A stretch of 64,000 nucleotides of DNA, from assembly GCA_963664825.1 (NCBI GenBank), contig OY761614.1, positions 2,080,001 through 2,144,000 of the forward strand, given 5' to 3'. Source of the stretch: an uncultured Holophaga sp. (lineage in GTDB: Bacteria > Acidobacteriota > Holophagae > Holophagales > Holophagaceae). Below the pieces are notes generated by a model. It worked only from the letters and a program-made list of their open reading frames with translations, did not search any database and had not been told where the DNA came from. The translations under genes were made by a program, and so were the position numbers. Numbering within the stretch: the first letter of the stretch is position 1; each line of letters opens with the position of its first letter. This document shows, one piece after another, positions 8,639 through 41,761 of this stretch.

Positions 8639-8640
8639 GG

Positions 8641-8740: not shown

Positions 8741-8765
8741 AATTGTTTTTTTGAAAGCTGATTCC

Positions 8766-15938: not shown

Positions 15939-16014
15939 GAGGGCCTCCAGGGTGAGGAGATTCAAGGGGGACGATCTTCAGGCGGCTTTAAGATCGGCGT
16001 GAAGACTCAGGATG

Positions 16015-16977: not shown

Positions 16978-17090
16978 GGGTATCGCTTTCCGGATTCAGC
17001 GTGGACACTACGTATGGTTTATTTGGGGATGACCTGACTGGACTCTTCATCAATAGCCATCCAGGGCCCCATATGTCAATGCGTCTTGAT

Positions 17091-17310
17091 TGTAATCGGT
17101 TCCAAAAATTTTATGGCCTGACCTGGTTGAGACGAGTTATGAAAAACAAGGCAATAAAAAAAACTGGTTGACAAGGTTCCCGCCAGGGACAAATATTTCC
17201 AGGCTCATTGCAACCGGTTTCATTTCTCAGGCACGAGTTCCCCCTATCGCCATCAGGCGGCTTTCGGTCGGGCCTGTTTTCTTCCTCGATGTGTATGAAA
17301 CCGGTTTCAT
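17091..17310. promoter_or_regulatory. Three LacI-type operators (TGxAACCGGTTxCA) in the divergent promoter
   Basis: tgtaatcggttcca 17091-17104, ttgcaaccggtttcat 17208-17223, perfect palindrome atgaaaccggtttcat 17295-17310. Confidence 0.8.
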
Positions 17311-17407
17311 GAAAATGGTAAATTTAAAGATGTCAACAAAACTAGCACGGCAATGTCCAAGTCCGCTCGATACCTCGGAAAGCCCCATCGGAAAGGAACG
17401 ACAGTCC

Positions 17408-19057: not shown

Positions 19058-19152
19058 ATCGCTCTCTCCCAAGGCCCTCCGAGTCCGGAGTGGCCCATCT
19101 TCAACGCAGTTCACCACAGCCGCTCTCGCGGCATTATTCAGGAGGCAACACC

Positions 19153-20526: not shown

Positions 20527-20539
20527 TTCGCAGTTGAAT

Positions 20540-20570
20540 CCAGGCGCCCGAAGCCTCTTCGGGTGCCTGG
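20540..20570 (+). other. Intergenic stem-loop without U-tract after lamB
   Basis: ccaggcgcccgaag-cct-cttcgggtgcctgg. Confidence 0.6.
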
Positions 20571-20652
20571 GCTGTTGACCTTTGCGATTGGCGCTCGCCC
20601 GGGTACCCAATCCGTTCCGGGCGCTGGTCGCGAAATTCCAGCAGGAGCTTGA

Positions 20653-22320: not shown

Positions 22321-22420
22321 CATCCCATCAGCACCCAACCCATATTGAAGGCCCTTCCCGTTCCTCCCACCTGAAACTCGATTCCCGTTTTCCTTCATCG
22401 TTCTGCTCGGACCCACTCCC

Positions 22421-23524
22421 ATGGCCAACCTCCAATTCAAGGCACTGCGCAAATCCTTCGGCGAGGTCGAGATCCTCCACGGGATCGACCTGGAGATCCA
22501 GGATGGCGAGTTCATCGTGTTCGTGGGGCCCTCGGGCTGTGGCAAGTCCACGCTGCTGCGCTGCATCGCAGGGCTGGAGGAGATCACCGATGGCGAACTC
22601 CGCATCGGCGGGAAGGTGGTCAACGATGTGCCCCCTTCCAAGCGCGGCATCGCCATGGTGTTCCAGAGCTACGCGCTCTATCCGCACATGACGGTGAGCG
22701 ACAACATGGCCTTTGGCCTCAAGCTGGCCGGGCTGCCCAAGGAGAAGGTCGCCGCCGCAGTGGCGAGGGCCGCCCAGATCCTCCAGATCGAATCCCTCCT
22801 GGACCGCAAGCCCAAGGCCCTCTCCGGAGGCCAGCGCCAGCGCGTGGCCATCGGGCGGGCCATCGTCCGCAAGCCGGGCGTCTTCCTCTTCGACGAGCCC
22901 CTTTCGAACCTGGATGCCGCCCTGCGGGTCCAGATGCGGGTGGAGCTGGCTAGGCTCCACAACGAACTCAAGACCACCATGGTCTATGTCACCCACGATC
23001 AGGTGGAGGCTATGACCCTGGCCAATCGCATCGTGGTCATCAACCAGGGGCGCATCGAGCAGGTGGGCTCCCCCCTGGAGCTCTACCACCACCCGGCCAA
23101 TCTCTTCGTGGCGGGCTTCCTGGGATCTCCCAAGATGAACTTCCTGGAATGTGTCCTGGTTTCGGCCGATGAACGGGGAACCCTCGTGCGCCTTCCGGAC
23201 GGCAGCGAGATCTCGGTGTTGGCCGATGCGCGGGGCCTCAACGCGGGGGATCCCCTGAGTCTAGGCATCCGCCCCGAGCATATCCTCGCCGATGGGTCCG
23301 AAGCCGACCACGTGGTGCGCGGCCATGTGCAGGTGGCGGAGCATCTGGGCGACACCACCTTCCTCTATGTCCGGGTGGCCGGGGCCGAGGAGAACCTCAC
23401 CGTGAAGGCCAGCCCCGATAACACCCTGGGCATGGACGATATCGCCCAGCTCCACTTCCCCCCGCATCGCAGCTTCCTCTTCGATTGTCAGGGTCGGACC
23501 CTTCCGGCCATTCAACCCGTCTGA
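22421..23524 (+). CDS. malK: Sugar ABC transporter ATP-binding protein
   Basis: GPSGCGKS, LSGGQRQR, FLFDEPLSNLDAALR, YVTHDQ, C-terminal TOBE region. Confidence 0.92.
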   Translation: MANLQFKALRKSFGEVEILHGIDLEIQDGEFIVFVGPSGCGKSTLLRCIAGLEEITDGELRIGGKVVNDVPPSKRGIAMVFQSYALYPHMTVSDNMAFGLKLAGLPKEKVAAAVARAAQILQIESLLDRKPKALSGGQRQRVAIGRAIVRKPGVFLFDEPLSNLDAALRVQMRVELARLHNELKTTMVYVTHDQVEAMTLANRIVVINQGRIEQVGSPLELYHHPANLFVAGFLGSPKMNFLECVLVSADERGTLVRLPDGSEISVLADARGLNAGDPLSLGIRPEHILADGSEADHVVRGHVQVAEHLGDTTFLYVRVAGAEENLTVKASPDNTLGMDDIAQLHFPPHRSFLFDCQGRTLPAIQPV

Positions 23525-23588
23525 GGCGTCCCCTGGACTCCCTCTCGAAACCCCCGTCTGGCCCCGCGGCCCGAAAAAGGAGAAACCC

Positions 23589-24794
23589 ATGAAGTTCCCC
23601 GCTCGAATCACGAAGGTGCTCGGCACCACAGCCCTGGCCCTGGCCGCGGGTTTGGCCTTCACCGCCCGTGCCGGAGAGCCCGGCAAGCTGCTCATCTGGA
23701 TCAACGGTGACAAGGGCTACCACGGTCTCCAGAAGGTGGGCAACGAGTTCACCAAGAAGACCGGCGTGAAGGTGGTGGTGGAGCATCCCGAGGATGCTCC
23801 CGGCAAGTTCCAGGCCGCCGCCGAAGAGGGCAAGGGGCCCGATATCTGGATCTGGGCTCACGACCGGGTGGGCGAGTGGGCCGATAGTGGCGTCATCAAC
23901 GCCCTGAACCCCGGCAAGAAGATCAAGGCCGATATCGATCCCAAGGCCTGGCAGGCCTTCACCATCAAGGGCAAGGTCTGGGCCTACCCCGTGGCCATCG
24001 AGGCCGTCTCCCTGATCTACAACAAGGCCCTCCTGCCCACGCCGCCCAAGACCTTCGAGGAGATCTTCGCCCTGGACAAGAAACTGATGGCCAGGGGCAA
24101 GAAGGCCATCCTGTGGGACTACACCAACACCTACTTCACCATGCCCATGCTGGCGGCCAATGGCGGCTACGCCTTCAGGATGAAGGCCGATGGCACCTAT
24201 AACCCGAAGGATACGGGCGTGAACAATGCCGGGGCCCTCAAGGGCGCCGAGCTGCTCACCCGCATGGTGCGGGAGGGCGTGATGCCCAAGGGCGCCACCT
24301 ACGCCGATATGGAAGCCGGCATGGCCCAGGGCAAGCTGGCCATGATGATCAGCGGCCCCTGGGCCTGGGATAATCTCAAGAAGGCCAAGATCAACTTCGG
24401 CATCGCCAAGCTCCCCACCGTGGGCGGCAGGCCTGCGGCTCCCTTCGTCGGCTACATGGGCGCCATGATCACCAAGGCCGCCTCCAACGCCCACAACGTC
24501 GATATCGCCCGGGAGTTCATCGAGAACCACATGCTGACCCTGAAGGGCCTCGAGACCATCAATGCAGACGTGGCCATCGGCACTCCCGCCAGCAAGCTCG
24601 CCTTCGCCAAGATGAAGTCCGATCCCCTGGTCCAGATCTCCATGGCCAGTGTTCGGGATGGCGTGGTGATGCCCAATAACCCGCAGATGGGGCGCTTCTG
24701 GGCCGCCATGGTTTCTGCCCTCAATAACATGACCGAAGGCCGTCAGACGCCCAAGGAAGCCCTGGATGCCGCTGCCAAGCGGATCCTGAAGTAG
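23589..24794 (+). CDS. malE: Maltose/maltodextrin ABC substrate-binding protein
   Basis: GKLLIWINGDKGY, VEHP, GPDI..WAHDR, MISGPWAW, MPNNPQM: MalE signature segments. Confidence 0.95.
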   Translation: MKFPARITKVLGTTALALAAGLAFTARAGEPGKLLIWINGDKGYHGLQKVGNEFTKKTGVKVVVEHPEDAPGKFQAAAEEGKGPDIWIWAHDRVGEWADSGVINALNPGKKIKADIDPKAWQAFTIKGKVWAYPVAIEAVSLIYNKALLPTPPKTFEEIFALDKKLMARGKKAILWDYTNTYFTMPMLAANGGYAFRMKADGTYNPKDTGVNNAGALKGAELLTRMVREGVMPKGATYADMEAGMAQGKLAMMISGPWAWDNLKKAKINFGIAKLPTVGGRPAAPFVGYMGAMITKAASNAHNVDIAREFIENHMLTLKGLETINADVAIGTPASKLAFAKMKSDPLVQISMASVRDGVVMPNNPQMGRFWAAMVSALNNMTEGRQTPKEALDAAAKRILK

Positions 24795-24802
24795 AATCCC
24801 CG

Positions 24803-24835
24803 GCCTGGATCCGGAGCCCTCGCTCCGGATCCGGC
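24803..24835 (+). other. Stem-loop between malE and malF
   Basis: ggatccggagc-cctc-gctccggatcc perfect stem, no U-tract. Confidence 0.6.
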
Positions 24836-24874
24836 TAGGGCCCTGCTTGCGCTTCACACTTTGGAATACCGCCC

Positions 24875-26407
24875 ATGAGCATCCCTCCAGCCATCAAGCG
24901 CTTTCTGTACCCCATCCTCATGTTTCTCCTGGGATTGGTGGGGCTCTATTTCGTCGTGGTGGTCTACAGCACCGGCGAAAGCCTCCTGGCCGCCACGATG
25001 CTGGTGGCGCTGGCGGCCTTCATCTGGATCTATACCTGGCCCAAGGCCTACGCCTACCGCTATCTCTTTCCAGGCATCGGCGCGGCCCTGATCTTCGTGG
25101 TATTCCCCATGCTCTACACTGTGAGCCTGGGTTTCACCAACTACAGTTCCAAGAACCTCCTGAACTTCCAGCGCGCCACCCAGTATCTGATGGAGGAGAC
25201 CTACCAGGGGGAGGGCGCCACCTACAACTTCGAGCTCCATCCCGCGGGTGGGCGCGTCGTGGCCCGGCTGGAGAATGCCGATTCGGGTGCGGTCTTCGTG
25301 ACGCCGCCCTTCGCCCTGGGGCAGGAGGCGCATCCCCTGACGCTGGTGGCCGCGCCGGCGGCCCAACCCCTGGCCAGCGAACCCATGAGCATCCGGGAGC
25401 TGATTCCCCGCCAGGACTTCCTGAACAGCCTCACCATCGTCATGCCGGACAAGACCCATGTGCGGATGACGGGCTTGAGCGAGTTCTCCCCCGCTCGCCC
25501 CCTCTTCACCCGCAATGGGGACGGGAGCCTGACCAATAACCAGGACCAGAGCGTCCTCCGGCCCAACTTCAAGACGGGCTTCTACGAGACCGCCGAAGGC
25601 GAAGCCGTGACGCCAGGCTTCCAGGTCAATATCCGGTGGAAGCACTACATCCAGATCTTCACCGACGCCAGCATGAGGGAACCCTTCCTCCAGATCTTCC
25701 TCTGGACGGTCCTCTTCGCGGGGCTGACGGTCTTTTTCGCCACCAGCCTCGGCATGGTGCTGGCGGTCCTGCTGAGCTGGGATTCCCTGCGCTTCAAGGG
25801 GTTCTATCGCCTGCTGCTCTTCCTGCCCTACGCGATCCCATCCTTCCTCTCCATCCTGGTGTTCAAGGGGCTCTTCAATAACAACCTGGGGGAGATCAAT
25901 CTCATCCTCGGTAGCCTGTTCGGGATCAAGCCGGCCTGGTTCTCGGATCCCTTCCTGGCGAAGGCCATGATCCTCATCGTCAATACCTGGCTGGGCTTTC
26001 CCTACATGATGGTGGTCTGCGCGGGCCTCATCAAGGCCATCCCCCAGGATCTCTACGAGGCTTCCGCGGTGGCGGGTGCGGGGCCCCTCACCAATTTCTT
26101 CAAGATCACGGTGCCCCTGATCCGGCGGCCCCTGACGCCCCTCCTGATCGCCTCTTTCGCCTTTAACTTCAACAACTTCGTGCTCATCAGCCTCCTCACC
26201 GGTGGGCGTCCCGACATCCTCAATACCAGCCTCCCGGCGGGCACCACCGACATCCTGGCCACCTACACCTACCGGATCGCCTTCGAAGATTCCGGCCAGC
26301 AGTTCGGTCTCGCGGCGGCCATCTCCACCGTGATCTTCCTGATGGTGGCGGCCATCTCCATCGTGCAGATCCGCTCCTCGAAGATCACGGATGACGAAAA
26401 GAGCTGA
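24875..26407 (+). CDS. malF: Maltose ABC transporter permease
   Basis: AYRYLFPG, FTNYSSKN, large periplasmic P2 loop, LYEASAVAGA, FAFNFNNF, GTTDIL. Confidence 0.93.
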   Translation: MSIPPAIKRFLYPILMFLLGLVGLYFVVVVYSTGESLLAATMLVALAAFIWIYTWPKAYAYRYLFPGIGAALIFVVFPMLYTVSLGFTNYSSKNLLNFQRATQYLMEETYQGEGATYNFELHPAGGRVVARLENADSGAVFVTPPFALGQEAHPLTLVAAPAAQPLASEPMSIRELIPRQDFLNSLTIVMPDKTHVRMTGLSEFSPARPLFTRNGDGSLTNNQDQSVLRPNFKTGFYETAEGEAVTPGFQVNIRWKHYIQIFTDASMREPFLQIFLWTVLFAGLTVFFATSLGMVLAVLLSWDSLRFKGFYRLLLFLPYAIPSFLSILVFKGLFNNNLGEINLILGSLFGIKPAWFSDPFLAKAMILIVNTWLGFPYMMVVCAGLIKAIPQDLYEASAVAGAGPLTNFFKITVPLIRRPLTPLLIASFAFNFNNFVLISLLTGGRPDILNTSLPAGTTDILATYTYRIAFEDSGQQFGLAAAISTVIFLMVAAISIVQIRSSKITDDEKS

Positions 26408-26431
26408 ACAGATCCAGGGAGAAATGGAACC

Positions 26432-27322
26432 ATGGCGATCGTCATCGATAAATCCCAGCGCTGGCGCGTGTTTGCCGCCCACGCCTGCATCATTGGCCTC
26501 TGCGCCCTCGTGATCTTCCCCCTCCTGATGGTGGTGTCGATTTCGCTGCGCCCAGGAAATTTCGCCACCGGTAGCCTGATCCCGCAAACCATCAGCCTGG
26601 AACACTGGCGCTTCGCGCTGGGGATGCCCTATCCAGGCTCCGACGGCCAGATGATTACGCCGGATCTGCCCGTGCTGCGCTGGCTCTGGAATTCCATTAA
26701 GATCGCCACGATTTCAGCCGCAGTCGCGCTCTTCCTCTCGACCACCGCTGCCTATGCCTTCGCGCGCATGAGGTTCGCCGGGAAGAAGGTCGCGCTCCTG
26801 GGCCTGATGCTGATGCAGATGTTTCCCACCGTGCTGGCTCTGGTGGCCATCCACGCCATCTTCTCCCGTATCGGCCATCCCTTCCCCGCCCTGGGCGTCG
26901 ATAGTCACTGGGCCCTGATCCTGGCCTACTCCGGTGGCGTGGCCATGCACATCTGGATCATCCGGGGCTTCTTCGAGACTATCCCGGGTGAGATCGAGGA
27001 GGCCGCCACCGTCGATGGCGCCACCCCTTGGCAGGCCTTCTGGCGCGTGCTCCTGCCCATGGCCATCCCCATCCTGGTGGTGGTCTTCCTGCTGGCCTTC
27101 ATCGGCGCCATCAACGAATATCCCCAGGCCTCCATCCTCCTCCGGACCCAGCCCAATCTCACGATGGCCGTGGGAGCCAAGCAGTTCCTCTACGCCCAGA
27201 AATACCTGTGGGGGGATTTCGCCGCCGCGGCGATCCTCTCGGGCCTTCCCGTTTCCGTGGTCTTTATCCTGGCCCAGCGATGGATGGTCTCCGGCCTCAC
27301 GGCCGGGGCCAATAAGGGCTGA
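26432..27322 (+). CDS. malG: Maltose ABC transporter permease
   Basis: SLRPGNFATGSLIP, WLWNSIK, EEAATVDGA, YLWGDFAAAAILSGLP, GLTAGANKG. Confidence 0.93.
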   Translation: MAIVIDKSQRWRVFAAHACIIGLCALVIFPLLMVVSISLRPGNFATGSLIPQTISLEHWRFALGMPYPGSDGQMITPDLPVLRWLWNSIKIATISAAVALFLSTTAAYAFARMRFAGKKVALLGLMLMQMFPTVLALVAIHAIFSRIGHPFPALGVDSHWALILAYSGGVAMHIWIIRGFFETIPGEIEEAATVDGATPWQAFWRVLLPMAIPILVVVFLLAFIGAINEYPQASILLRTQPNLTMAVGAKQFLYAQKYLWGDFAAAAILSGLPVSVVFILAQRWMVSGLTAGANKG

Positions 27323-27378
27323 ACCCTTCACCAACCTCCGAGGGCCAAGGCCCTCCCAACCTCAAGAAGGAGAACCGC

Positions 27379-27810
27379 ATGAGCCTCAGCTCCACACTCC
27401 TCAAGACGATCGCCGGGCTTGCCCTGGCCGTGACCCCAATGCTGGCCACGCCGCCCGAGGGCATGATCGAGATCAACTACCACCGCTGTGATGCCAAGTA
27501 CGAGCGCTGGGGCGTGCATCTCTGGAAGAGCCCCAACATGCCGTTGCCCGACATCGAATGGCCCAACCCCATGATGCCCACCGGCAAGAACGACTTCGGC
27601 GTCTTCTGGCACGCGAAGCTCGACGAGTTCTCCACGGGCTCCAAGGCCCAGGTCAACTACATCATCCACAAGGGCGATATCAAGGAGCAGGGCGGCAAGG
27701 ACATGGCCTTCGATGGCAATGCCCACAAGGCGATCTGGGTCATCAACAATGACCGCGGTATCTACTTCTCCCAGGAAGAGGCCATGAAGGGCCACGTCTG
27801 CAAGAAGTAG
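27379..27810 (+). CDS. Secreted stand-alone pullulanase-associated (CBM41-like) domain protein
   Basis: AAGGAG RBS, signal peptide; INYHRCDAKYERWGVHLW, DFGVFW, NYIIHKGD..KE. Confidence 0.75.
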   Translation: MSLSSTLLKTIAGLALAVTPMLATPPEGMIEINYHRCDAKYERWGVHLWKSPNMPLPDIEWPNPMMPTGKNDFGVFWHAKLDEFSTGSKAQVNYIIHKGDIKEQGGKDMAFDGNAHKAIWVINNDRGIYFSQEEAMKGHVCKK

Positions 27811-27829
27811 CCTGCATGAACTAGCTAGC

Positions 27830-27858
27830 CGCCCCCGGGTATCCGAAACCCGGGGGCG
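27830..27858 (+). other. Stem-loop after the CBM41 gene
   Basis: cgcccccgggt-atccgaa-acccgggggcg. Confidence 0.55.
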
Positions 27859-27894
27859 CCTTGTCCCGATTCCCGAACGCTGCAAGAGGCTTCC

Positions 27895-29559
27895 ATGATC
27901 CCGGTCTCCCCATTGTCCTCCGCTCTTCTTGCGGCCTCCTGCTTGTTCACGGCTTCCTTGAGCCTGGAGGCCGGGGCGCCCCCTTCCTTCGCCGATAATC
28001 CGATCGTCTACTTCGTGATGACCGATCGTTTCCAGAACGGGAACCCGGCCAACGACCATAGCTACGGGCGCCAGCGCGGCACCACCCCCAAGGAGGATGT
28101 GGGCACCTTCCACGGCGGCGATCTGAAGGGCCTCACCCAGAAGCTCCAGGCCGGCTATTTCAAACAGCTCGGCGTGAACGCCCTCTGGATCACGGCGCCC
28201 TACGAGCAGATCCACGGATGGGTGCAGGGCGGGAACAAGGAGTTCAAGCACTACGCCTACCATGGCTACTACGCCCTCGACTACACGGTGCTTGACCAGA
28301 ACATGGGCACCCCCGAGGAACTGCGGGAGATGGTCGATACCGCCCACACCCAGGGCATCCGCATCCTCTTCGATGTGGTGATGAACCACCCCGGCTATCT
28401 GGATCTCCAGACCGCCTCCGATCTCAAGATCGATGTGTTGTGGAAGGGCTGGGAGAAGGATGGGAATCTCCTGCGGAACTACCACAACTTCATCGACTAC
28501 AACAGCGACAACTGGGACGGGTGGTGGGGCCGTCCCTGGGTGCGCGCGGGCCTGCCGGGCTACATCGACGGGGGCCGCAACGACCAGACCATGCAGCTGG
28601 CCTTCCTGCCCGATTTCAGGACCGAGAGCAAGGAGGCCGTCCAGGTCCCCAAGTTCCTGCGGGAGAAGGTCGGCACGCGGGCCGTGGACCTGCCCGGCAC
28701 CACCGTCCGGGGCTACCTGGTGAAGTGGCTCACGGACTGGGTGCGGGAGTACGGCATTGACGGCTTCCGCTGCGATACGGTCAAGCACGTGGAGCCCGAG
28801 GCCTGGATGACCCTGAAGGGGGAGGGCCTGAAGGCGCTGGCGGAGTGGAAGGCTAAGAATCCCGCCAAGAAGATCGATGATGCCGCCTTTTGGATGGTCG
28901 GCGAATACTGGGGCGCGGGCCCCGAACCCCACAAGATGCTGGGTTCGGGCTTCGACGCCATGATCAATTTCGATTTCCAGGAGCGAGGCAAGTCCTTCGC
29001 CAAGCCTGATGGGCTGTTCAGCGAGTACGCCAAGGCCCAGGCTGGGAAAGCGCCCCATATGCTGAACTACATCTCCTCGCACGATACCAAGCTCTTCGAC
29101 CGGGAGAAGCTCCTGGAAGGGGGCGCGGCCCTGCTCCTGGCCCCCGGCGGCGTCCAGATCTTCTACGGAGACGAAAGCGGTCGGCCCCTGGGTTATACGC
29201 CCAACACGGATCCTCAGCAGGGCACGCGTTCGGACATGAACTGGAATGCCATCGACGAGAAGCTGCTGGCGCACTGGCGCAAGCTGGGTACCTTCCGGGC
29301 CGTCCACCCGGCCCTGGCTCGGGGAGAACATAAGCAGCTGAGCGCGTCTCCCTACGTCTTCAGCCGCATCGACGCTTTCCACGATGACCGCGTGGTGGTG
29401 GCCATGGATGTGAATGGCGAAGTGACACTGAATGTCGCGGGCGTCTTCACCGACGGCCAGGCCCTGCGGGATGCCTACACGGGCCGCAGCGCCGTCGTGG
29501 AGAAGGGGCTCGTGAAACTCCAGGCCGAGCGCTACGTGCTGCTCGAGCGCGCCCGCTGA
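27895..29559 (+). CDS. Periplasmic alpha-amylase (MalS-like catalytic domain, GH13)
   Basis: Signal peptide; VYFVMTDRF, FHGGDLKG, YAYHGYY, VMNHPGY, DGFRCDTVKHVE, VGEYW, SSHDT. Confidence 0.88.
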   Translation: MIPVSPLSSALLAASCLFTASLSLEAGAPPSFADNPIVYFVMTDRFQNGNPANDHSYGRQRGTTPKEDVGTFHGGDLKGLTQKLQAGYFKQLGVNALWITAPYEQIHGWVQGGNKEFKHYAYHGYYALDYTVLDQNMGTPEELREMVDTAHTQGIRILFDVVMNHPGYLDLQTASDLKIDVLWKGWEKDGNLLRNYHNFIDYNSDNWDGWWGRPWVRAGLPGYIDGGRNDQTMQLAFLPDFRTESKEAVQVPKFLREKVGTRAVDLPGTTVRGYLVKWLTDWVREYGIDGFRCDTVKHVEPEAWMTLKGEGLKALAEWKAKNPAKKIDDAAFWMVGEYWGAGPEPHKMLGSGFDAMINFDFQERGKSFAKPDGLFSEYAKAQAGKAPHMLNYISSHDTKLFDREKLLEGGAALLLAPGGVQIFYGDESGRPLGYTPNTDPQQGTRSDMNWNAIDEKLLAHWRKLGTFRAVHPALARGEHKQLSASPYVFSRIDAFHDDRVVVAMDVNGEVTLNVAGVFTDGQALRDAYTGRSAVVEKGLVKLQAERYVLLERAR

Positions 29560-29586
29560 TTAAGCCACCCAACCCGGAGATTACCC

Positions 29587-31224
29587 ATGAGCACCAAGAG
29601 ACTTCCCCAGGTCGCCTACTTCTGCATGGAATACGCCCTTGAAAGCAGCTTCAAGATCTACGCCGGCGGCCTGGGCATCCTCGCCGGGGACTACCTGAAG
29701 GGCGTGAAGGACTATGGCTTCCCCATGGTGGGCATCGGCATCCGCTGGAAGCAGGGCTACGGGGAGCAGTTCATCGAACCCGCCACGGGCAAGGCCTTCG
29801 ATGCCTACAAGAACCAGGCCCATGAATTCCTGGAAGATACAGGCGTCGTGGTGAAGGTGCCCATCAAGGGACGCGATGTGCATGTGAAGGTCTGGCGGGT
29901 GAATTCCCATGGTGTGGATTCCCTCTACCTGCTCGATACCGATATCGAAGAGAACGACGGCGAGGCTCGCTGGATCACGGGCCAGCTCTACGGCTGGTTC
30001 GGCGAGGAGCGGGTGGCCCAGGAGATGGTGCTGGGCATCGGCGGCGTGCGGGCCCTGAAGGCCCTGAAGATCAAGCCCGAGGTCTTTCACTTCAACGAGG
30101 GCCATGCCCTCTTTGCCGGGTTTGAACGGATCCGTGAGCGCATGGCCAGGGGGGCCAGCTTCGAGAGCGCCTGGGCCAAGACCCGGGAGGAGGTGGTCTT
30201 CACCACCCATACGCCCATCGTGCAGGGCAACGAATCCCATCCCATCGAGCGCTTCATCTACATGGGCGCCAATCTGGGGCTCACCCGCACCCAGCTCAAG
30301 CAGCTGGGGGGAAGCCCCTTCAATATGACCGTCGGCGCTCTGCGACTTTCCCGCATCTCCAATGCGGTGGCCGATCTGCACCGGGTGACCGCCAATACGA
30401 TGTGGGCCGGGATCAAGGGGCGCTGCGAGATCATCGGCATCACCAACGCCATCCATACCGGCACCTGGGTGGACCCTCGGATGCTCGAATTGGCCGATGG
30501 CGGCAAGGCCCGCAAGGAGGCCCTCTGGAAGCGCCACCTGGAGAACAAGCGCAAGCTCATCGGTTTCGTGAAGGAACGCACGGGCGTCACCCTGGACCCC
30601 AAGGTGCTCCTCATCGGGTTCTCCCGTCGGGCCGCGCCCTACAAGCGTTCGAACTTCATCTTCACCGAGCGGGCCTTCATCGAGCCCCTCCTGAAGAGCG
30701 GCAAGCTCCAGATCGTCTTCTCCGGGAAGTCCCATCCCCTCGACGATAACGGCAAGGTGATCGTGGAGGACATCGTGGCCATGACCCGGAAGTATCCAGG
30801 CAAGGTGGTCTTCCTGGAGAACTACGATATGGAGATCGGCGCCATGCTCACCCGGGGCTCGGATGTGTGGCTGAACAATCCGCGCCGTCCCAAGGAAGCC
30901 TCGGGCACCTCGGGCATGAAGGCCGCCATGAATGGCGTCCTGAACCTGTCCATTCTGGACGGCTGGTGGCCGGAGGCCTGCCAGCATGGCGTGAACGGAT
31001 GGCAGTTCGGCGATGGCTACGAAAACGCGAAGGAAACCCTGCTGGACAAGCACGACTTCAAGGCCTTCAAGAAGGTCCTCGCCGAAGAGGTCCTGCCCAC
31101 CTACTACGAGCATCCCGGCAGGTGGATCGACATGATGCTGGAATCCATCCGCAGCACCCGGGAAGCCTTTGGCGTCAAGCGCATGCTGGACGAGTACTAC
31201 GGCCGGATGTACATCCGGCAATAG
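29587..31224 (+). CDS. glgP: Alpha-glucan phosphorylase (compact form)
   Basis: AYFCMEY, YAGGLGILAGD, HFNEGH, FTTHTP, ITNAIH, YKR, EASGTSGMK (PLP Lys), LDGWW. Confidence 0.9.
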   Translation: MSTKRLPQVAYFCMEYALESSFKIYAGGLGILAGDYLKGVKDYGFPMVGIGIRWKQGYGEQFIEPATGKAFDAYKNQAHEFLEDTGVVVKVPIKGRDVHVKVWRVNSHGVDSLYLLDTDIEENDGEARWITGQLYGWFGEERVAQEMVLGIGGVRALKALKIKPEVFHFNEGHALFAGFERIRERMARGASFESAWAKTREEVVFTTHTPIVQGNESHPIERFIYMGANLGLTRTQLKQLGGSPFNMTVGALRLSRISNAVADLHRVTANTMWAGIKGRCEIIGITNAIHTGTWVDPRMLELADGGKARKEALWKRHLENKRKLIGFVKERTGVTLDPKVLLIGFSRRAAPYKRSNFIFTERAFIEPLLKSGKLQIVFSGKSHPLDDNGKVIVEDIVAMTRKYPGKVVFLENYDMEIGAMLTRGSDVWLNNPRRPKEASGTSGMKAAMNGVLNLSILDGWWPEACQHGVNGWQFGDGYENAKETLLDKHDFKAFKKVLAEEVLPTYYEHPGRWIDMMLESIRSTREAFGVKRMLDEYYGRMYIRQ

Positions 31225-33024: not shown

Positions 33025-34056
33025 ATGACCTCGGATCCCTTCGCCTCGACCAGTGTCTCCCAGCGGGTGCGGTGGCTCACCCTCATGGCCCCCTTGATGG
33101 GAGTTCTCTGCGCGGTGGCCACGGGACAATTCGTGAGTACGGTGCTCGGCGACCACCACTGGGGAGCCCTCGGAAGACCCCGTTGGGCTGCTCATTCCGG
33201 AGCCGTCGGTTTGGTTGTGGCGCTAGGTCTGAGCCTTGTCGGCCTGGGGGCCGCACGCTTCACGTCCTGGTGGGTGGCTCGAGTCCCCACCATGGCCCGG
33301 GACCATTTCCGGGGCTGGTATTTCTGGAGCGCCCTGGTGGGCATCCCCGTGGGTTTGGCGCTGGGACATATGATGGTCTGGCTCACCCACGTCCAGCGCG
33401 TTCCGGCCTCGGCTGTGAACATGGCCCTGCTGGGCACCGTGGCCACGGTGATGACTTCCGGGATGATCGGCTACTACCGCCTGGAGAGCCTCGCCCGCAC
33501 CCAGCGAGGGCTTCTGCTCCAGAGCCAATTGGCCCCCCACTTCCTCTTCAATAGCCTCAGCACCCTGAAGGGGCAGATCGCCGACGAGCCCCTGGAGGCC
33601 CAGGTCACGGCGGATCGCCTCTCCCGTCTCTTCCGGGAACTCATGGATATGGGTGGCCAGGCCTTCATTCCGCTCTCCCGGGAACTGGCCTTCGTGGAGG
33701 CCTATCTCGGCCTGGAGAAGGCCCGGCTCGGAGACCGTCTCCAGGTGCGGATCGAAGTGCCGGAGGAACTGGAGAGCTTTCCCGTACCGCCCCTCAGCCT
33801 GCAGGTGCTGGTGGAGAATGCTGTTCGTCATGCCCTCGCACCCCGGATCGAGGGCGGTCTGCTCAGCATTCGCGCCAGCTTCGTGCCGGCCGGGCTGCAG
33901 CTGGTGGTGGGAGATCCGGGCACCGGCCAGTCGCCCAATCCAGGCACCGGCCGCGGCCTCCAGGTTCTGCGGGCGCGGCTGACACGGCCCTCGGATCTCA
34001 CCTTCGAGAGGCTTCCCGCGGGGCATCAAGCCACGCTGCTCTTGAGGAAGGCATGA
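33025..34056 (+). CDS. LytS/YehU-family sensor histidine kinase
   Basis: About 4 TM segments; QLAPHFLFNSL, ELAFVEAYLGLE, LQVLVENAVRH. Confidence 0.9.
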   Translation: MTSDPFASTSVSQRVRWLTLMAPLMGVLCAVATGQFVSTVLGDHHWGALGRPRWAAHSGAVGLVVALGLSLVGLGAARFTSWWVARVPTMARDHFRGWYFWSALVGIPVGLALGHMMVWLTHVQRVPASAVNMALLGTVATVMTSGMIGYYRLESLARTQRGLLLQSQLAPHFLFNSLSTLKGQIADEPLEAQVTADRLSRLFRELMDMGGQAFIPLSRELAFVEAYLGLEKARLGDRLQVRIEVPEELESFPVPPLSLQVLVENAVRHALAPRIEGGLLSIRASFVPAGLQLVVGDPGTGQSPNPGTGRGLQVLRARLTRPSDLTFERLPAGHQATLLLRKA

Positions 34057-34748
34057 TCCGCATCGTCGTAGCTGAAGACGAACCCGCCAGTCGCCGACTG
34101 CTGGTGGGCTACCTGCGGGAGCTGCCGGGCGTGGAGGTTATCGGCGAGGTGGGGCACGGCGCCGAGGCCCTTGATCTCGCGGCCAGGCTCCATCCGGATG
34201 CCCTCTTTCTGGATATCGAGATGCCGGGTCTTTCTGGGATGGCGCTGGCCGCGGCTCTCCCTGATCCGAAGCCGCGCCTAGTCTTCGTGACGGCCTATGC
34301 CCAGCACGCCGTGGAGGCCTTCCGCCTGGGGACCGCCCACTACCTGCTCAAACCCGTATCCCGAGTGGATGTGGCCCAGGCGATTGCGCGGCTCTATCCC
34401 CAGGAAGCCTCCGTGCGTGGCGAGTGGCTGCGCATTCCCGTCCGGGAGCGCCATGGACTGCGCATGCTCCTTCCTGAAGATGTGGAGGCGCTGATTGCGG
34501 ATTTGGGGGATTGCCAGGCTCTCACGCCGGAGGGGAAACTGCGGGTGGAAGGCACGCTGGCCCAGTGGGAGGAACGCCTCCAACCCGTCGGGTTCTTCCG
34601 CATCCACCGCAACGCCTTGGTGCGTCTGGGGGCCGTGAAGGCATTGACCGAAGGCGACGAGGTGATCCTGCCCTCGGGCACGCTCTCCCTCAGCCGCCGT
34701 CGGCGCGAATCCCTGGCGCGGGCCCTGGGCTTTCATCTTCAGCGATAG
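34053..34748 (+). CDS. LytTR family response regulator
   Basis: AEDEP, FLDIEMPG, FVTAY, YLLKP, FFRIHRNALV; ATGA overlap with the kinase. Confidence 0.92.
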   Translation: MIRIVVAEDEPASRRLLVGYLRELPGVEVIGEVGHGAEALDLAARLHPDALFLDIEMPGLSGMALAAALPDPKPRLVFVTAYAQHAVEAFRLGTAHYLLKPVSRVDVAQAIARLYPQEASVRGEWLRIPVRERHGLRMLLPEDVEALIADLGDCQALTPEGKLRVEGTLAQWEERLQPVGFFRIHRNALVRLGAVKALTEGDEVILPSGTLSLSRRRRESLARALGFHLQR

Positions 34749-36847: not shown

Positions 36848-37534
36848 TCAGATCCCGCCGAAGCGGCGCTCGCGGACGGCATAGGCGGCCAGGGCCTCCC
36901 GCAGCTGGGGGCCGCGGAAGTCGGGCCAGAGGCATTCGGTGACGTAGAACTCGGCGTAGGCGGCCTGCCAGAGCAGGAAATTGGAGATGCGCATTTCCCC
37001 TGAGGTGCGGATGAGCAGGTCCACCTCGGGCGCATCCGCCGTCCAGAGGCGGGCCTGGAGGGCCTCCTCGGTCACTTCCTCGGCACGCAACCCGTCCTCG
37101 ATGCATCGTTGCGCCGCATGAGTGATCTCCAAGCGGCTGCCGTAATTGACCGCCAGGTGGAAGGTCATGCCCGTATGGGCGGCCGTGGAGGCTTCCAGCG
37201 CGCGGAGATCCCGCTGGATGCCTGCGGGCAGGCCTTCGAGGGCGCCCAGATGATGGAAGCGGATGTTCTTCTTTTGCAGCTTGGGCAGGAACATCCGGAG
37301 GTACATCCGCAGGAGGGCCATGAGTCCGGCCACCTCCAGGCTCGGCCGCTTCCAGTTCTCGGTGCTGAAGGCATAGAGTGACAGGTGCTGAATGCCCGCC
37401 TCCGCAGCGGCGTCCAACACCTCCTCCACGGCCCGCACGCCCTCCTTGTGCCCCTTGATTCGGGTCCAACCCCGCTGAGCCGCCCAGCGCCCGTTCCCGT
37501 CCATAATAATGGCTACGTGATTCGGCGCGCTCAT
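36848..37534 (-). CDS. uppS: Undecaprenyl diphosphate synthase
   Basis: PNHVAIIMDGNGRWA, YAFSTENWKR, VNYGSR, DLLIRTSGEMRISNFLLWQ, RERRFGG. Confidence 0.97.
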   Translation of the reverse strand: MSAPNHVAIIMDGNGRWAAQRGWTRIKGHKEGVRAVEEVLDAAAEAGIQHLSLYAFSTENWKRPSLEVAGLMALLRMYLRMFLPKLQKKNIRFHHLGALEGLPAGIQRDLRALEASTAAHTGMTFHLAVNYGSRLEITHAAQRCIEDGLRAEEVTEEALQARLWTADAPEVDLLIRTSGEMRISNFLLWQAAYAEFYVTECLWPDFRGPQLREALAAYAVRERRFGGI

Positions 37535-37801
37535 AGGGCCACCCCGCAGAAATCGCGCGTCCAAAGGCTTGGTGCTGAGGCTTCGCGTATGGCCGCAGGC
37601 CATACCGAAATAATGATGCCCACGTGGGCCGGAATACTCATCGCGGGATCCCTGCTCGTGGTTTAGAACCGCCCCGCGTGTAGGTCTCGGACATCCCCGC
37701 AGGGGATTCCGAGATAATGATGGAGACCTGATTCGGGACGCTCATCGCGGGCACCCCTCGGGGGGGCACCAGAAACTGGGCGATGTGGCCGGAAGGCTCA
37801 A
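37535..37801 (-). repeat. Tandem array of variant uppS 5'-end copies, each followed by a hairpin
   Basis: Copy at ATG 37641 reads MSIPAHVGII, copy at ATG 37745 reads MSVPNQVSII; decayed third copy near 37775-37801; 104-107 bp period. Confidence 0.8.
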
Positions 37802-37938
37802 GGGCAGGATCTCCGGGAAGCCCCTTTCAGGGGCCTGAGGGCTTGGACGAACGGGCGAATTCTAGCATGGGGGGCGGGGCCCCAGGGGGGGTGGGGAAAA
37901 TCCTGCTAGGCTGGAGAGATCACCCGGGACTTCCACCC

Positions 37939-40293
37939 ATGGTCCAATTCAACACGCGCGCTAACGAGATCCTGCTGAAACTGGTCTACTACGGCCCAGG
38001 GCTCTCGGGCAAGACGACCAACCTCCAGTCCCTGCACGCCATGTGCCAGGAAGTGCAGCGGGGCGAGCTGTTCTCCGTCAACACCCAGGAGGATCGCACC
38101 CTCTTCTTCGATCTGCTTCCCATCAATCTCGGCTACATCTACGGCAACGCCATCCACCTTCAGATCTACACGGTGCCCGGCCAGGTGCAGTACGACGCGA
38201 GTCGGCGGGTGGTGTTGGGCGGGGCCGACGGCGTGGTCTTCGTGGCCGATTCCAGCGAATCCAAGATGCAGGAGAATGTGGATTCCCTCTCGAATCTTTA
38301 CCACAACCTCAATGCGAACCGGCTGAACATCAAGCAGATCCCCTTCGTGCTGCAGTACAACAAACGGGATCTGGATGATGCCATGCCGGTGGGCGTGATG
38401 AACCGGCGGCTCAATTTCCGCTCGGTGCCCTTTTTCGAGGCCGTGGCGCCTCGGGGCACGGGCGTATTGGAGACCTTCCTGTCCATCACCAAGGACACGG
38501 TGGGCACCACCTTCAAGAAGTATCACCTGGACAAGAAGATCAAGGATTTCGACGAGATGCTCAATCTCATCGAGACCAATATCCGCTCCAGCATGCGGGA
38601 GCTCCCGGCTGCCGATCAGCTGCCCCTGCCTCGGCCCGAGAGCACCGTGCTGCGCCATAGCGATGTGAGCGTGGCCGATCTGACCCCCGGCAAGGTGGCC
38701 GATGCCCAGGAACTCCTGGAGGATGCCCTCAAGTCCAATATGGAGACGGCCCGTCTCTACAGCGAACTCAAGCAGACCAAGGAAGCCCTGGACAAGAAGG
38801 GCGAGGAGATGGCCACCCTCTTCAATCAGCTGGAGCGGGCCAACCAGGATAATCTCAAGACCCGTCGCTACCTGGAGGGGCTCATCCAGAGCGTAGGGGA
38901 AGCCATCATCTCCTTCAGCCACGATGGCCGGATCCTCACCTGGAATACGGCCGCCGAGCAGATCTTCGGGTATCCCCGCAGCGAGATCGTCGGCAGATCC
39001 TTCCAAATGCTCCTCCCTCCTTCCAAGGCCGGAGAACTGGAACAAGCCATCCTCCAGGTAGGCAAGGGGCAGGTCCTCCGGGATATCCCCAGCGTTCGTG
39101 TGCGCAAGGGAGGCCAGGAATTTCCGGCTTCGGTCACCTACGCACCCATCCGGGGCAGCGATGACCGGGTGCTGGCCTTCTCAGCCCTGGTGCGGGATGT
39201 GGGCGAACAACGGACGCTGGAACATAAGCTGGAACACGCCGAGACCAGTTCGAGCCTGGCCCGCATCATGCCGCCCCTCTTCAACGAACTGGCCAACCGC
39301 CTCGGCCCGGTCCTGCTCCAGAAGAGCCTGTTGCTGGAGATGACCCCGGATCCGGGCCAGCAACTCCGCATGTCCCGGCTCTTGCAGGGGGTGGACGCGT
39401 CCCAGAACCTGTTGCGCCCCCTCCTGATGGTGCTCTCGCCCTCCTCTCCCCGCCTCGAATCCACGAACGTGAATCTCCTGGTCCAGGAGGCTGCCAAGCG
39501 CGTGGAAGCCGAGGCCGCCGCCAGCGGTGTGGCCATGGATTTCACCATGGATCCCACGGTGCCGGATTGCGGATTGGATCCCGATATGGTTCGGGAGGCC
39601 CTGGTCAATCTCTTCCGCAGCGGGGTCTTCGCGGCGGCGAAATCCACCGTGAAGCGGGTTCGCGTGGGCACTCGGGTGGCTGGAAACATGATCCAGATCG
39701 TGAGCCAGGATACGGGCGATGCCATTCCCGAACCCGAACAGGGGCGGGTCTTCGATCTCTCCGCGGCTTTGGACATCGAGGCTCTGGGTCTCTGCACGGT
39801 GGCCACCGTGGTCCATGCCCACGGGGGTCGTGTCTCGGTGCGCAGTCAGGCCGGGGTCGGGAATGCCTTTCTCGTGGAGTTGCCCATGTCCGATGCCGCT
39901 CCAAAAACGAATGCCGAACCCTCCATGCAGGGGAAGAAGATCCTGGTGGTCGATGACGAAGCCTTCCTGCTGGAGTGTCTCGTCGATGCCATGGAGGCCT
40001 GGGGATGTGTCGTGACGCCCTGCGACCTGGCCGCCGAGGCCATCCAGAAGCTTCAGGTGGGTAGCTTCGATCTCATCGTCTCCGATATCCGGATGCCCGG
40101 CCTGAGCGGCATCCAACTCTTCCAGTGGATTGCCGAGTACCAGCCCGAGATGACCAAGAAGATCATCTTCACCACGGGGGATGCCTTCGATCCGGAGACC
40201 CGCACCTTCCTGGAGGAGGCCAAGCTGCCTCATCTGGGCAAGCCCTTCGATCTTAAGAAGATGAAACAGGCCATGGGGGACGTGCTCATTTAG
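37939..40293 (+). CDS. MglA-like small GTPase fused to coiled coil, PAS, degenerate histidine kinase and receiver domain
   Basis: KLVYYGPGLSGKTTN, DRTLFFD, YTVPGQV, QYNKRDL; PAS WNTAAEQIFGY; kinase-like FNELANRL / LVNL / DTG; REC VVDDE..SDIRMPG..KPF. Confidence 0.85.
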   Translation: MVQFNTRANEILLKLVYYGPGLSGKTTNLQSLHAMCQEVQRGELFSVNTQEDRTLFFDLLPINLGYIYGNAIHLQIYTVPGQVQYDASRRVVLGGADGVVFVADSSESKMQENVDSLSNLYHNLNANRLNIKQIPFVLQYNKRDLDDAMPVGVMNRRLNFRSVPFFEAVAPRGTGVLETFLSITKDTVGTTFKKYHLDKKIKDFDEMLNLIETNIRSSMRELPAADQLPLPRPESTVLRHSDVSVADLTPGKVADAQELLEDALKSNMETARLYSELKQTKEALDKKGEEMATLFNQLERANQDNLKTRRYLEGLIQSVGEAIISFSHDGRILTWNTAAEQIFGYPRSEIVGRSFQMLLPPSKAGELEQAILQVGKGQVLRDIPSVRVRKGGQEFPASVTYAPIRGSDDRVLAFSALVRDVGEQRTLEHKLEHAETSSSLARIMPPLFNELANRLGPVLLQKSLLLEMTPDPGQQLRMSRLLQGVDASQNLLRPLLMVLSPSSPRLESTNVNLLVQEAAKRVEAEAAASGVAMDFTMDPTVPDCGLDPDMVREALVNLFRSGVFAAAKSTVKRVRVGTRVAGNMIQIVSQDTGDAIPEPEQGRVFDLSAALDIEALGLCTVATVVHAHGGRVSVRSQAGVGNAFLVELPMSDAAPKTNAEPSMQGKKILVVDDEAFLLECLVDAMEAWGCVVTPCDLAAEAIQKLQVGSFDLIVSDIRMPGLSGIQLFQWIAEYQPEMTKKIIFTTGDAFDPETRTFLEEAKLPHLGKPFDLKKMKQAMGDVLI

Positions 40294-40409: not shown

Positions 40410-41036
40410 TCAGTTACCCGTGAACCCGTCCGCGAGATTCACCACCGTCATGGCTTCGTATTCCTGATGCGGGCCGGTGGCGGCCCCGGCCACGTGGATG
40501 TCTGGATTGAAAATGAGGCGGCGGTGGCCCCGGTCCGGGACCCCATCGTCGATGAGGAGCTGAAGGACCGTCATGCGCGGGGTTTCCGCGCCGTAGTTGA
40601 TGACTTCCCCGAAGGTGGAAAGGGGTAGGCCGTGCTTCAGGAGCCGCTGCTGCAGGGTGGAACCGGTGGTACCCCTGTGGCCTGTCTGCTGGGTGCGGCC
40701 CTGGTCGCGCACATGGTCCCGGGCGGCCCGGGACAGGCCCTCGTCCCAGCGCAGGGGGCCGATGGGGAGGGCCTTCTCGAGGTAAGCGATGGCCTCCTCC
40801 AGGGCGGCGGCACCTTCCTCCGTCAGGACCGTGATCTGGCCGGGCCGCTTCAGCCTCTTCCCCTCGAAAAAGGGGCGGAGTTCCCGCAGGAACCGGGCGT
40901 ATTCCCGAGGGGCCGTGCGGGCCCAGGAGAGTTCCTTCACCACAGCCACTTCCAGGGCTTCGGCCTTGGGGACCTCGGGCACCTCCGGCGCTGGGCAACC
41001 GAGGGCGGGGACGAGGAGGGCCAGTGCGGGATGCAT
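40410..41036 (-). CDS. CAP (SCP) domain exported protein
   Basis: Hydrophobic N-terminus; LRWDEGLSRAARDH, TGH, GEVI, LLIDDGVPDRGHR. Confidence 0.8.
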   Translation of the reverse strand: MHPALALLVPALGCPAPEVPEVPKAEALEVAVVKELSWARTAPREYARFLRELRPFFEGKRLKRPGQITVLTEEGAAALEEAIAYLEKALPIGPLRWDEGLSRAARDHVRDQGRTQQTGHRGTTGSTLQQRLLKHGLPLSTFGEVINYGAETPRMTVLQLLIDDGVPDRGHRRLIFNPDIHVAGAATGPHQEYEAMTVVNLADGFTGN

Positions 41037-41041
41037 GAACC

Positions 41042-41761
41042 CTACTCTTCGCCCTTCCGCTGCTTGCCCTCGGGATCGAAGGTGTAGCCCACGCTGCGCA
41101 TGGTATGGACCCAGCGGGGATGGTGGGCGTCGATCTCCATGGCGCGGCGGATGCGGACGATGAAGTTGTCCACGGTGCGGGTGGTGGGGTAGGTCTCTTC
41201 GCCCCAGACCTTGTCGAGAATCTCGGTGCGGCTCACCACCTGGCCCGGTTTCTCCATGAGGAGCTTGAGGATCATGCACTCCTTCACCCCCAGCTGGAAG
41301 GCGCCTCCGGGGCCTTCGCCGCAGAAGTTCTCGAAATCCACCCAGTGGGGGCCGAAGTTCTGGCGGCCGGCCAGGGTGCGATTCCGGTACCAGGCCTCCC
41401 GGCGCAGGATGGCGCGCACGCGCAAAAGCAGCTCCCGCACCTGGAAGGGCTTGCCCAGGTAATCGTCACCGCCTGTCTCGAAGCCGTGGACGCGATCATC
41501 CTCGGTATTCTTGGCGGTGAGAAAGAGGATGGGGGTGAAGTTCTTCGCATCCCGCACCCGCTCGCAGACGGAGAATCCGTCCATGCCCGGCAGCATCACG
41601 TCCAGGATCACCAGGTCGTAATCGTCATGGAGGATGCGCTTGAGGGCCTCGTCGCCCCGGGTGATCCACTCGCAGGGCAGGCCTTCCATTTCGAGATTGA
41701 GCTTGATGCCCTCGGCCAAGCTCAGTTCGTCTTCGACCAATAGGATCCGGGGTGCGGGCAT
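41042..41761 (-). CDS. OmpR/PhoB family response regulator
   Basis: LLVEDE, LDVMLPGMDG, DDYLGKPF, RTVDNFIVRIR, TMRSVGY. Confidence 0.93.
   Translation of the reverse strand: MPAPRILLVEDELSLAEGIKLNLEMEGLPCEWITRGDEALKRILHDDYDLVILDVMLPGMDGFSVCERVRDAKNFTPILFLTAKNTEDDRVHGFETGGDDYLGKPFQVRELLLRVRAILRREAWYRNRTLAGRQNFGPHWVDFENFCGEGPGGAFQLGVKECMILKLLMEKPGQVVSRTEILDKVWGEETYPTTRTVDNFIVRIRRAMEIDAHHPRWVHTMRSVGYTFDPEGKQRKGEE

Follow-up and report, generated by a model that had tools for sequence, protein, structure and literature searches.

Can a bacterial polarity GTPase be joined to two-component signalling within a single polypeptide? To our knowledge, every MglA-type GTPase studied so far is small and stands alone, and MglB and RomR/RomX act on it in trans as its regulators. 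The question is raised by one gene in a stretch of 64,000 nucleotides from an uncultured Holophaga sp. (Acidobacteriota, Holophagaceae; GenBank assembly GCA_963664825.1, contig OY761614.1, positions 2,080,001 to 2,144,000 of the forward strand), the whole of which we call the window. A preliminary description, made from the letters of the window, had read this gene as an MglA-type GTPase fused to a coiled coil, a PAS domain, a kinase-like region without its phospho-acceptor His and an intact receiver (REC) domain. Here we ask whether the chain is real, how its modules have fared among relatives, and in which direction a signal would run along it.

Architecture of the fusion protein

The gene is a single uninterrupted open reading frame (37783/37939-40293, plus strand) whose translation from the ATG at 37939 gives 784 residues (Table 1). 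This ATG is the likely start codon, because 27 of 28 aligned homologues begin at the MVQFN that it encodes. The in-frame ATG at 37783 was rejected as the start, since the 52 extra residues that it would add match no aligned homologue; the single longer row among the 28 (P0095) has a different N-terminal extension of 21 residues. Public DNA contigs from four runs in two studies cover the gene with zero differences around the Asn codon discussed below, although the best-matching of these runs may be the source sample of the genome, and their agreement mainly excludes local assembly error. The locus was found in 23 public runs altogether, with no RNA runs among them.

Table 1. Positions of the modules, diagnostic residues and related genes. 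Positions are those of the window; locations that carry G000:C1 lie elsewhere in the same genome. AF2, AlphaFold2.
Feature	Location	Strand	Basis or remark
Whole coding sequence, 784 aa + stop	37939..40293	+	single uninterrupted open reading frame; start backed by homologue N-termini
MglA-type GTPase domain, aa 1-195	37939..38523	+	phmmer to 6h17, Foldseek, motifs
P-loop GPGLSGKTT (aa 19-27)	37993-38019	+	motif; kept in 116/121 homologues
Arg53, switch I, in DRTLFFD (aa 52-58)	38095-38097	+	motif
Gln82, G3, in TVPGQ (aa 78-82)	38182-38184	+	motif
NKRD guanine-specificity motif (aa 141-144)	38359-38370	+	kept in 121/121 homologues
Linker, aa 196-255	38524..38703	+	AF2 models, alignment
Long continuous helix, aa 256-317, putative coiled coil	38704..38889	+	AF2 models, alignment, heptad test
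PAS domain, aa 318-425	38890..39213	+	Pfam PAS_4 59.9 bits, PAS 58.4; TIGR00229 74 bits
DHp-like two-helix module, aa 426-505, with degenerate H-box LFNELANRL (aa 447-455)	39214..39453	+	HMMER, AF2
Asn449, codon AAC, at phospho-His position	39283-39285	+	alignment to ZraS
CA (HATPase_c-like) domain, aa 506-655	39454..39903	+	Pfam HATPase_c; ZraS, HK853, FixL alignments
Ser561 at Mg-binding N-box Asn position, in NLFRSG (aa 557-562)	39619-39621	+	HMMER alignments
Receiver domain, aa 668-778	39940..40272	+	Pfam Response_reg 65.1 bits
uppS, divergent upstream neighbour, marks syntenic locus in other genera	36848..37603	-	Pfam; tblastn
mglB directly upstream of mglA	L001:727-1851 (G000:C1, about 2517135-2518259)	-	Robl_LC7
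MglA paralogue, 388 aa	L004:1501-2667 (G000:C1:2939525...)		Pro-rich linker, C-terminal extension
MglA paralogue, 292 aa	L006:1501-2379 (G000:C1:239945...)		Pro-rich linker, C-terminal extension

By sequence and predicted structure, the N-terminal domain is an MglA-type, Group-1-like GTPase with its intrinsic Arg and Gln in place. Residues 1-200 match Myxococcus xanthus MglA (6h17) at 49% identity (phmmer, E 1.7e-56), without gaps over residues 5-186 and with the P-loop, DRTLFFD, TVPGQ and NKRD in register; Thermus thermophilus MglA follows at E 6.7e-50, and the next matches are Rab and Arf at about 1e-5. The sequence around the P-loop (residues 17-28) reads YYGPGLSGKTTN, and DRTLFFD and TVPGQ are both kept in 119 of 121 homologues. 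The Pfam Ras model gives a weak Ras/Arf-type match of 27.4 bits. An AF2 model of residues 1-330, built from a 102-row alignment, has a mean confidence (pLDDT) of 88.7 and a pTM of 0.82, and its GTPase domain superposes on MglA-GTPgammaS (6h17) with a TMt of 0.96 and a root-mean-square deviation of 1.1 A over 191 columns. All 12 rows listed between ranks 1 and 13 of this Foldseek search are MglA, followed by Arf and Ras at E 1e-10. In a full-length model from a 28-row alignment, the same domain reached a pLDDT of only about 30 and was unusable, because that alignment is nearly invariant in the GTPase; the 102-row alignment solved the problem.

The switch-I Arg finger and the catalytic Gln of G3 are the features described for Group 1 of the MglA family (Wuichet & Sogaard-Andersen 2015, PMC4316618, in its accessible text), and the window domain has the P-loop, Arg, Gln and NKRD in common with the Group 1 proteins of M. 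xanthus and T. thermophilus. However, MglA stands alone, with about 195 residues, and its gene lies next to mglB, the gene for its GTPase-activating protein (GAP), whereas the window domain is the N-terminus of a much longer chain that has no mglB beside it. At 784 residues and five modules, the protein falls outside the single-domain range of the MglA family (about 150-240 residues); the prokaryotic small-GTPase census, as its accessible text describes it, left out sequences of more than 240 residues, and such fusions were therefore unclassified (PMC4316618).

Behind the GTPase lies a linker with a conserved helix at about residues 199-218 (204-218 in the model), a variable Pro-rich stretch and a short conserved motif, STVLRHS, with a predicted strand (residues 236-238 in the model). 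A helix predicted to be continuous to residue 317 or 324 (about 65 residues, pLDDT 84-97) then leads into the PAS domain, whose Pfam matches span residues 312-425; within this helix the segment LLEDALKSNMETA is nearly invariant among homologues.

The kinase-like module keeps its fold and has lost its signature residues. HMMER pairs LARIMPPLFNELANRL with ALGHLAAGVAHEIRNPL of ZraS (9jfj), which places Asn449 on the phospho-acceptor His, and the HisKA model has no Pfam match in the protein at E <= 0.1. Residues 549-651 match HATPase_c at 35.5 bits, above the model's cut-off of 26.4. NLFRSG aligns with NLYLNA of ZraS, NLLNNG of HK853 and NLFRNA of FixL, so that Ser561 falls on the N-box Asn; work on EnvZ and HK853 has shown that this Asn holds Mg-ATP. 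G1 reads DTGDA (within DTGDAI, residues 591-596) and departs from DxGxG, and G2 reads EALGL (ALGL at residues 615-618) and departs from GxGxG. In the full-length AF2 model, the DHp helices span residues 422-460 and 472-499, the CA domain is folded over residues 507-649 (pLDDT mostly 77-94) and the receiver occupies residues 667-783. The receiver has every expected residue: DDE at 672-674 (D672, D673), D716 (40084-40086), T746 and K768. NtrB-, AtoS- and ZraS-type PAS kinases and the hybrid kinases EspA and EspC are the best partial matches of residues 281-784 (ZraS 9jfj at E 1.3e-17). The window protein differs from the AtoS- and EspA-type kinases in lacking both the His and the N-box Asn, and its partial NCBIfam matches stay far below the family cut-offs of 646-1400 bits (EspA, 133 of 1400 bits; AtoS, 131 of 646 bits). 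With neither an acceptor His nor an N-box Asn, the kinase-like module of the window organism is very probably incapable of canonical autophosphorylation.

Much of the preliminary description thus stood. The chain is one, with the domains in the stated order; the motifs that it quoted are all present; the GTPase with its Arg and Gln, the missing phospho-His, the eroded N, G1 and G2 boxes, and the intact receiver were read correctly. That this is one gene rather than two is borne out by the four sequencing runs, and by 77 genomes in which a single match runs from residue 1 to at least residue 778.

Conservation in the Holophagaceae and beyond

A homologue is found in 115 of the 121 Holophagaceae genomes, in 15 of 16 genera; in the genus that gave no match (0/4 genomes) the genomes are of about 1 Mb. 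The best 120 database matches are 65-90% identical to the window protein, most of them full length (about 780-800 residues) and a few of 648-767 residues, and their named sources are Holophaga, Geothrix, Mesoterricola and 'Holophagaceae'. We fetched 20 loci from 15 of the 16 genera (all but g4; genera carry our own numbers); uppS adjoins the orthologue in 19 of them (tblastn), and the 20th ends at a contig edge. To judge from sequence and gene order, the homologues are orthologues at one uppS-cdsA-adjacent locus, a conserved property of the family and not a one-off. The full architecture is there in most of the family, but not throughout it, since some genera are without REC, DHp-CA or both.

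Identity is unevenly spread along the chain. Averaged over the homologues, identity to the window protein is highest in the GTPase (0.915) and drops by way of the linker (0.77), PAS (0.71) and REC (0.65) to DHp (0.56) and CA (0.53). Within the window genus (6 sequences, 15 pairs), the ratio of nonsynonymous to synonymous substitution (dN/dS or omega, by NG86) is 0.033 for the GTPase, 0.151 for the linker, 0.089 for PAS, 0.086 for DHp, 0.134 for CA and 0.140 for REC; in the large, Geothrix-like genus g5 (7 sequences, 21 pairs) the values are 0.067, 0.215, 0.258, 0.137, 0.365 and 0.235, respectively. All domains are under purifying selection in the window genus, and the kinase-like module, although the least conserved part, is not decaying neutrally in either genus. 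The DHp-CA module of the window protein has the sequence traits of a histidine pseudokinase of the DivL/PsmA type, a missing His together with maintained selection (omega 0.086 and 0.134).

Across the 121 homologues, the residue at the phospho-acceptor site is N in 71, H in 43, L in 3, S in 2 and Y and K in one each, and genus g16 has Asp; the N-box site is S in 57 and N in 36, with assorted others. Combinations of the two sites (H-site/N-box) fall into N/S (48), H/N (30), N/N (6), H/S (5) and smaller classes. His with the N-box Asn is typical of g5, which reads LFHE(A/V)ANRL and NLLLNG, and genus g14 has His without the N-box Asn. The second Gly of G1 is Ala in 107 of 121 homologues, His-bearing ones included. 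By comparison, the receiver residues D672, D673, D716, T746 and K768 are invariant in 119-121 of 121. The term His-less pseudo-kinase therefore holds for the window protein but not as a trait of the family: the preliminary description had itself named homologues that keep the His and autophosphorylate as a finding that would count against it, and the first half of this applies in part, as 43 of 121 carry a His, among them a same-genus orthologue that is 84% identical to the window protein and has CAC (His) in place of AAC, one base apart.

Parsimony requires at least three changes between His and non-His and at least five at the N-box. A Fitch pass places Asn at the H-site and Ser at the N-box at the root of the family, on a weakly resolved tree (a quick IQ-TREE of residues 1-440 with 61 rows, 14 open forks and long outgroup branches at the root). 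Because the rooting depends on those long branches, this polarity of the His/Asn exchange is tentative.

Whole modules have been lost at the same locus. Orthologues of g7 and g16 have 649-663 residues and end after CA, and receiver-like sequence was not found within about 1.5 kb downstream of them; this shorter, REC-less match occurs in 5/5 g7 and 8/9 g16 genomes. One g14 lineage (L019, 560 residues) passes from PAS directly to REC without DHp-CA, a form also seen in a metagenomic protein of 569 residues (P0124). In g3 (L008) and another g14 lineage (L024) the protein ends after PAS. Since orthologues at one locus do without REC, DHp-CA or both, the constant core of the family is, on this sequence comparison, GTPase-linker-helix-PAS and not the whole junction. 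Two further loci have all modules and an interrupted frame: in L015 (G010, genus g11) a TAG lies inside PAS, and in L016 (G011, genus g12) the frame changes before REC. These interruptions may be assembly errors or young pseudogenes.

The window protein also belongs to a wider class of extended MglA proteins. Four MglA-type genes are present in its genome. Between the window G domain and the canonical MglA identity is 49%, and two paralogues of 388 and 292 residues have C-terminal extensions that match no Pfam family. A profile-free GTPase-domain search of 1.84 billion representatives returned 6235 matches; among the best 150 of them, 148 have at least 250 residues with the G domain at the N-terminus. 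We scanned 40 of these relatives (all of at least 500 residues among the best 150, plus the best few) and found HATPase_c in 9, HisKA in 4, PAS in 8, GAF in 8 and a receiver in 4 (one below cut-off); about half have extensions without a Pfam match. P0136 has both HisKA (82 bits) and HATPase_c (109 bits), and a cluster with the order MglA-GAF-HisKA-HATPase has a name that comes from a Thermoanaerobaculales metagenome-assembled genome. Among 151 Acidobacteriota genomes sampled, a tally that includes three genomes flagged as unpublished, MglA-type domains occur in 114; a genome often has 2-5 of them, and the open frames that hold them are often 400-850 residues long. C-terminally extended MglA proteins thus appear to be the rule in the Acidobacteriota. 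Orthologues with at least 89% G-domain identity occur in the Holophagaceae only, and the nearest relative outside the family reaches about 60% identity and lies in a frame of about 410 residues.

The window holds no mglB or other Roadblock gene, as had been noted for the surroundings of the fusion gene. The search for mglB elsewhere in the genome, which the preliminary description had called for, led to a canonical mglB-mglA operon about 0.4 Mb away, with a Roadblock protein of 175 residues (Robl_LC7, 55 bits) and an MglA of 194 residues. This mglB is the only Roadblock gene over the cut-off in the genome; a weak Roadblock-like match of 20.1 bits, below the cut-off, lies at G000:C1:847215-847472. 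Of 61 family genomes, 55 yielded Roadblock genes. The GTPase-PAS orthologue is present in two g3 genomes (92-94% complete) that gave no Robl_LC7 match, which argues against a strict need for MglB.

Direction of signal flow

We propose that in the window protein a dead kinase scaffold couples the state of PAS and receiver to the GTPase, a reading that stands evenly between right and wrong in our judgement. The gene product would be a soluble signalling protein in which an MglA-type switch is tethered by a helical linker to PAS, DHp/CA and receiver. By analogy with kinase architecture it would be a dimer, held together by the long helix, probably a dimeric coiled coil, and by the DHp bundle. The perfect conservation of the receiver residues suggests that the receiver obtains its phosphoryl group in trans, from another kinase; the dead kinase core would read its state and, together with PAS, relay that state along the helices to the GTPase, a 'reverse' signalling of the kind that DivL performs for DivK. 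The GTPase would be the business end, its effector binding set by its nucleotide state, because it is invariant and the most constrained part of the chain. On whether the GTPase is output rather than input, we lean neither way with any force. With FliG and three PilT-family ATPases over the cut-off encoded in the genome, pilus-based and flagellar motility are both available as possible targets. The scheme of the preliminary description, a scaffold through which control passes from REC or PAS to the GTPase or the other way round, is consistent with these data; GTPase activity, trans-phosphorylation and the direction of flow are what we infer from them.

Several observations weigh against this proposal. 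The N-terminal domain of an ordinary sensor kinase serves as its input, and MglA-GAF-HisKA-HATPase relatives with good HisKA matches exist; taken together, these favour flow from GTPase to kinase, at least ancestrally. Thirty of the 43 His-bearing homologues also keep the N-box Asn, for which reason the module may be a working kinase in some genera. The G1 Asp (Asp591 in the window protein) is kept in 106 of 121 homologues, and the CA domain may therefore still bind nucleotide in spite of its erosion. Insofar as the C-terminal modules can go missing altogether, the regulation that they provide is dispensable and may be minor. The coiled coil of the preliminary description holds as a predicted continuous helix, but its heptad signal is modest, the observed hydrophobic fraction at a/d positions being reached by 62 of 2000 shuffles.

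Were the signal to run from the N- to the C-terminus, the MglA domain would be the input, through its own nucleotide state or a bound GAP, guanine nucleotide exchange factor (GEF) or polar landmark, and would set the conformation of PAS-DHp-CA-REC; the output would be partner binding that depends on the receiver or the pseudokinase. The g5 orthologues would then be G-protein-gated hybrid histidine kinases, and the window protein a kinase-dead derivative or relative of them. The domains follow one another as in sensor kinases, HATPase_c and HisKA recur among the scanned GTPase-domain relatives (9 and 4 of 40, P0136 for example), and the g5 boxes LFHE(A/V)ANRL and NLLLNG are in keeping with this model. 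However, orthologues of GTPase, helix and PAS only persist at the same locus, and no other part comes near the GTPase in constraint. CA is the least constrained domain of g5 (omega 0.365), its constraint there being no stronger than in the His-less window genus; even in His-bearing proteins, G2 has the form E(A/S/T)LG and Ala mostly replaces the second Gly of G1; and parsimony puts Asn and Ser at the root, on a quick and weakly resolved tree. We hold this reading to be on the unlikely side, and opposite flow, with the GTPase as kinase input, may hold in g5. A still active kinase with non-canonical chemistry, using another His or Asp acceptor, forming heterodimers in which it is phosphorylated in trans or relying on a different metal-binding CA, would account for the kept CA fold, the kept Asp591 and the purifying selection on the module. 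Yet the acceptor His and N-box Asn are missing, G2 is degenerate, HisKA finds no match, and among orthologues the H-site can be N, S, L, Y, K or D, all of which make such activity very improbable.

The chain itself is almost certainly a real single-chain protein. Artefactual assembly, a chance fusion of recent date or decay into a pseudogene could explain the interrupted frames of L015 (TAG) and L016 (frame change), but hardly the 77 genomes with one full-span match, the best 120 matches at 65-90% identity and mostly full length, the omega of 0.03-0.14 in all domains (the range from GTPase to REC) or the agreement of contigs from four runs with the window; such an origin is refuted within the reach of sequence data, and we give it almost no credence. 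A bolder idea, which we find doubtful, is that the family as a whole couples a Ras-superfamily switch to His-Asp signalling in one chain: in g5 the nucleotide state of MglA would gate a working hybrid kinase, while the window lineage would run backwards, its phosphorylated receiver, read by the dead kinase core, setting the GTPase without MglB. If this were true, a bacterial polarity GTPase would be under built-in, GAP/GEF-like control by a two-component signal.

Locus and known systems

The gene is solitary. Its upstream neighbours, uppS/cdsA/dxr, are divergent, and downstream a CAP-domain gene and an OmpR-type regulator converge upon it (Pfam). The upstream intergenic region (37604-37938, 335 nt) is GC-rich and contains the in-frame ATG at 37783. 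Rfam found no match in 37400-38000, a promoter and terminator scan of the intergenic region gave no promoter-like (sigma-70-like) site and a single terminator-like site, on the minus strand and within chance expectation, and a repeat search there returned short pairs only, at chance level. The open reading frames of the CAP-domain gene (40410-41279) and of the OmpR-type regulator (41042-41761), both on the minus strand, share about 240 nt, and the true start of the CAP-domain gene is probably further downstream than the mechanical one. As a candidate partner of the fusion protein, the OmpR-type regulator was set aside because it recurs in some loci only (L026 and L014, with partial matches in L009 and L025). 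A LytTR-type two-component pair (His_kinase and LytTR regulator) lies at 33025-34748, 3 kb upstream of the gene; it was considered as a partner as well, and we claim no link. A second BtsR-like regulator is found at 58801-59577. Elsewhere the window carries housekeeping or catabolic functions, and no motility genes were seen in it. It includes a selenium-linked purine-catabolism-type cluster (67-10085; ygfK-like, ygeY, ygeW knotted carbamoyltransferase, ssnA) and a maltodextrin utilisation island (13614-31224; pullulanase, LacI-type repressor, glucosidases, LamB-like maltoporin, MalK/E/F/G, alpha-amylase and alpha-glucan phosphorylase).

Each domain of the protein has known counterparts. SofG carries extensions beyond its G domain, in which none of the PAS, kinase and receiver modules is known. 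The Caulobacter protein DivL has a Tyr at the phospho-acceptor site, and its structure (4q20) matches the window DHp-CA module at E 4.4e-06. Extended MglA paralogues, SofG among those named in the accessible text of PMC4316618, resemble the window protein in joining an MglA-type G domain to extra sequence. DivL is described in the accessible parts of its literature (PMC4211667, bioRxiv 10.1101/812529) as a histidine pseudokinase with a part in polarity that signals in reverse, its kinase core sensing a phosphorylated receiver. It resembles the window protein in a PAS-DHp-CA arrangement with the acceptor His replaced, but, as far as those sources go, it binds a separate response regulator, controls another kinase and has neither a GTPase nor a fused receiver. 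PsmA of Streptomyces venezuelae, according to the accessible text of PMC12963549, is a hybrid histidine-kinase-like pseudokinase without the critical His that is tied to cell polarity; as described there, it has no GTPase domain, comes from another phylum and has DivIVA as its partner. In the actinobacterial conservons CvnA-D, an MglA-family GTPase is functionally linked to a histidine-kinase-like protein (PMC4316618, PMC12236503, in their accessible portions). There four separate proteins, a Roadblock protein among them, make up the system, and its GTPase belongs to Group 2 and is without the Arg finger, whereas the window protein is one chain with a Group-1-like GTPase and no Roadblock domain. 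Our full-text literature search found no paper on an MglA-PAS-kinase-receiver fusion. The domains are all known, and their combination is undescribed in the literature found.

This single locus provides a natural series of full hybrid kinase, His-less, receiver-less, kinase-less and bare GTPase-PAS forms. Such a series permits a direct test of how a small GTPase and a phosphorelay can communicate inside a single chain, and likewise of the purpose for which a histidine pseudokinase is retained. The fusion protein is present in cultured strains of Geothrix, Holophaga and Mesoterricola (names taken from database matches), which makes these tests feasible.

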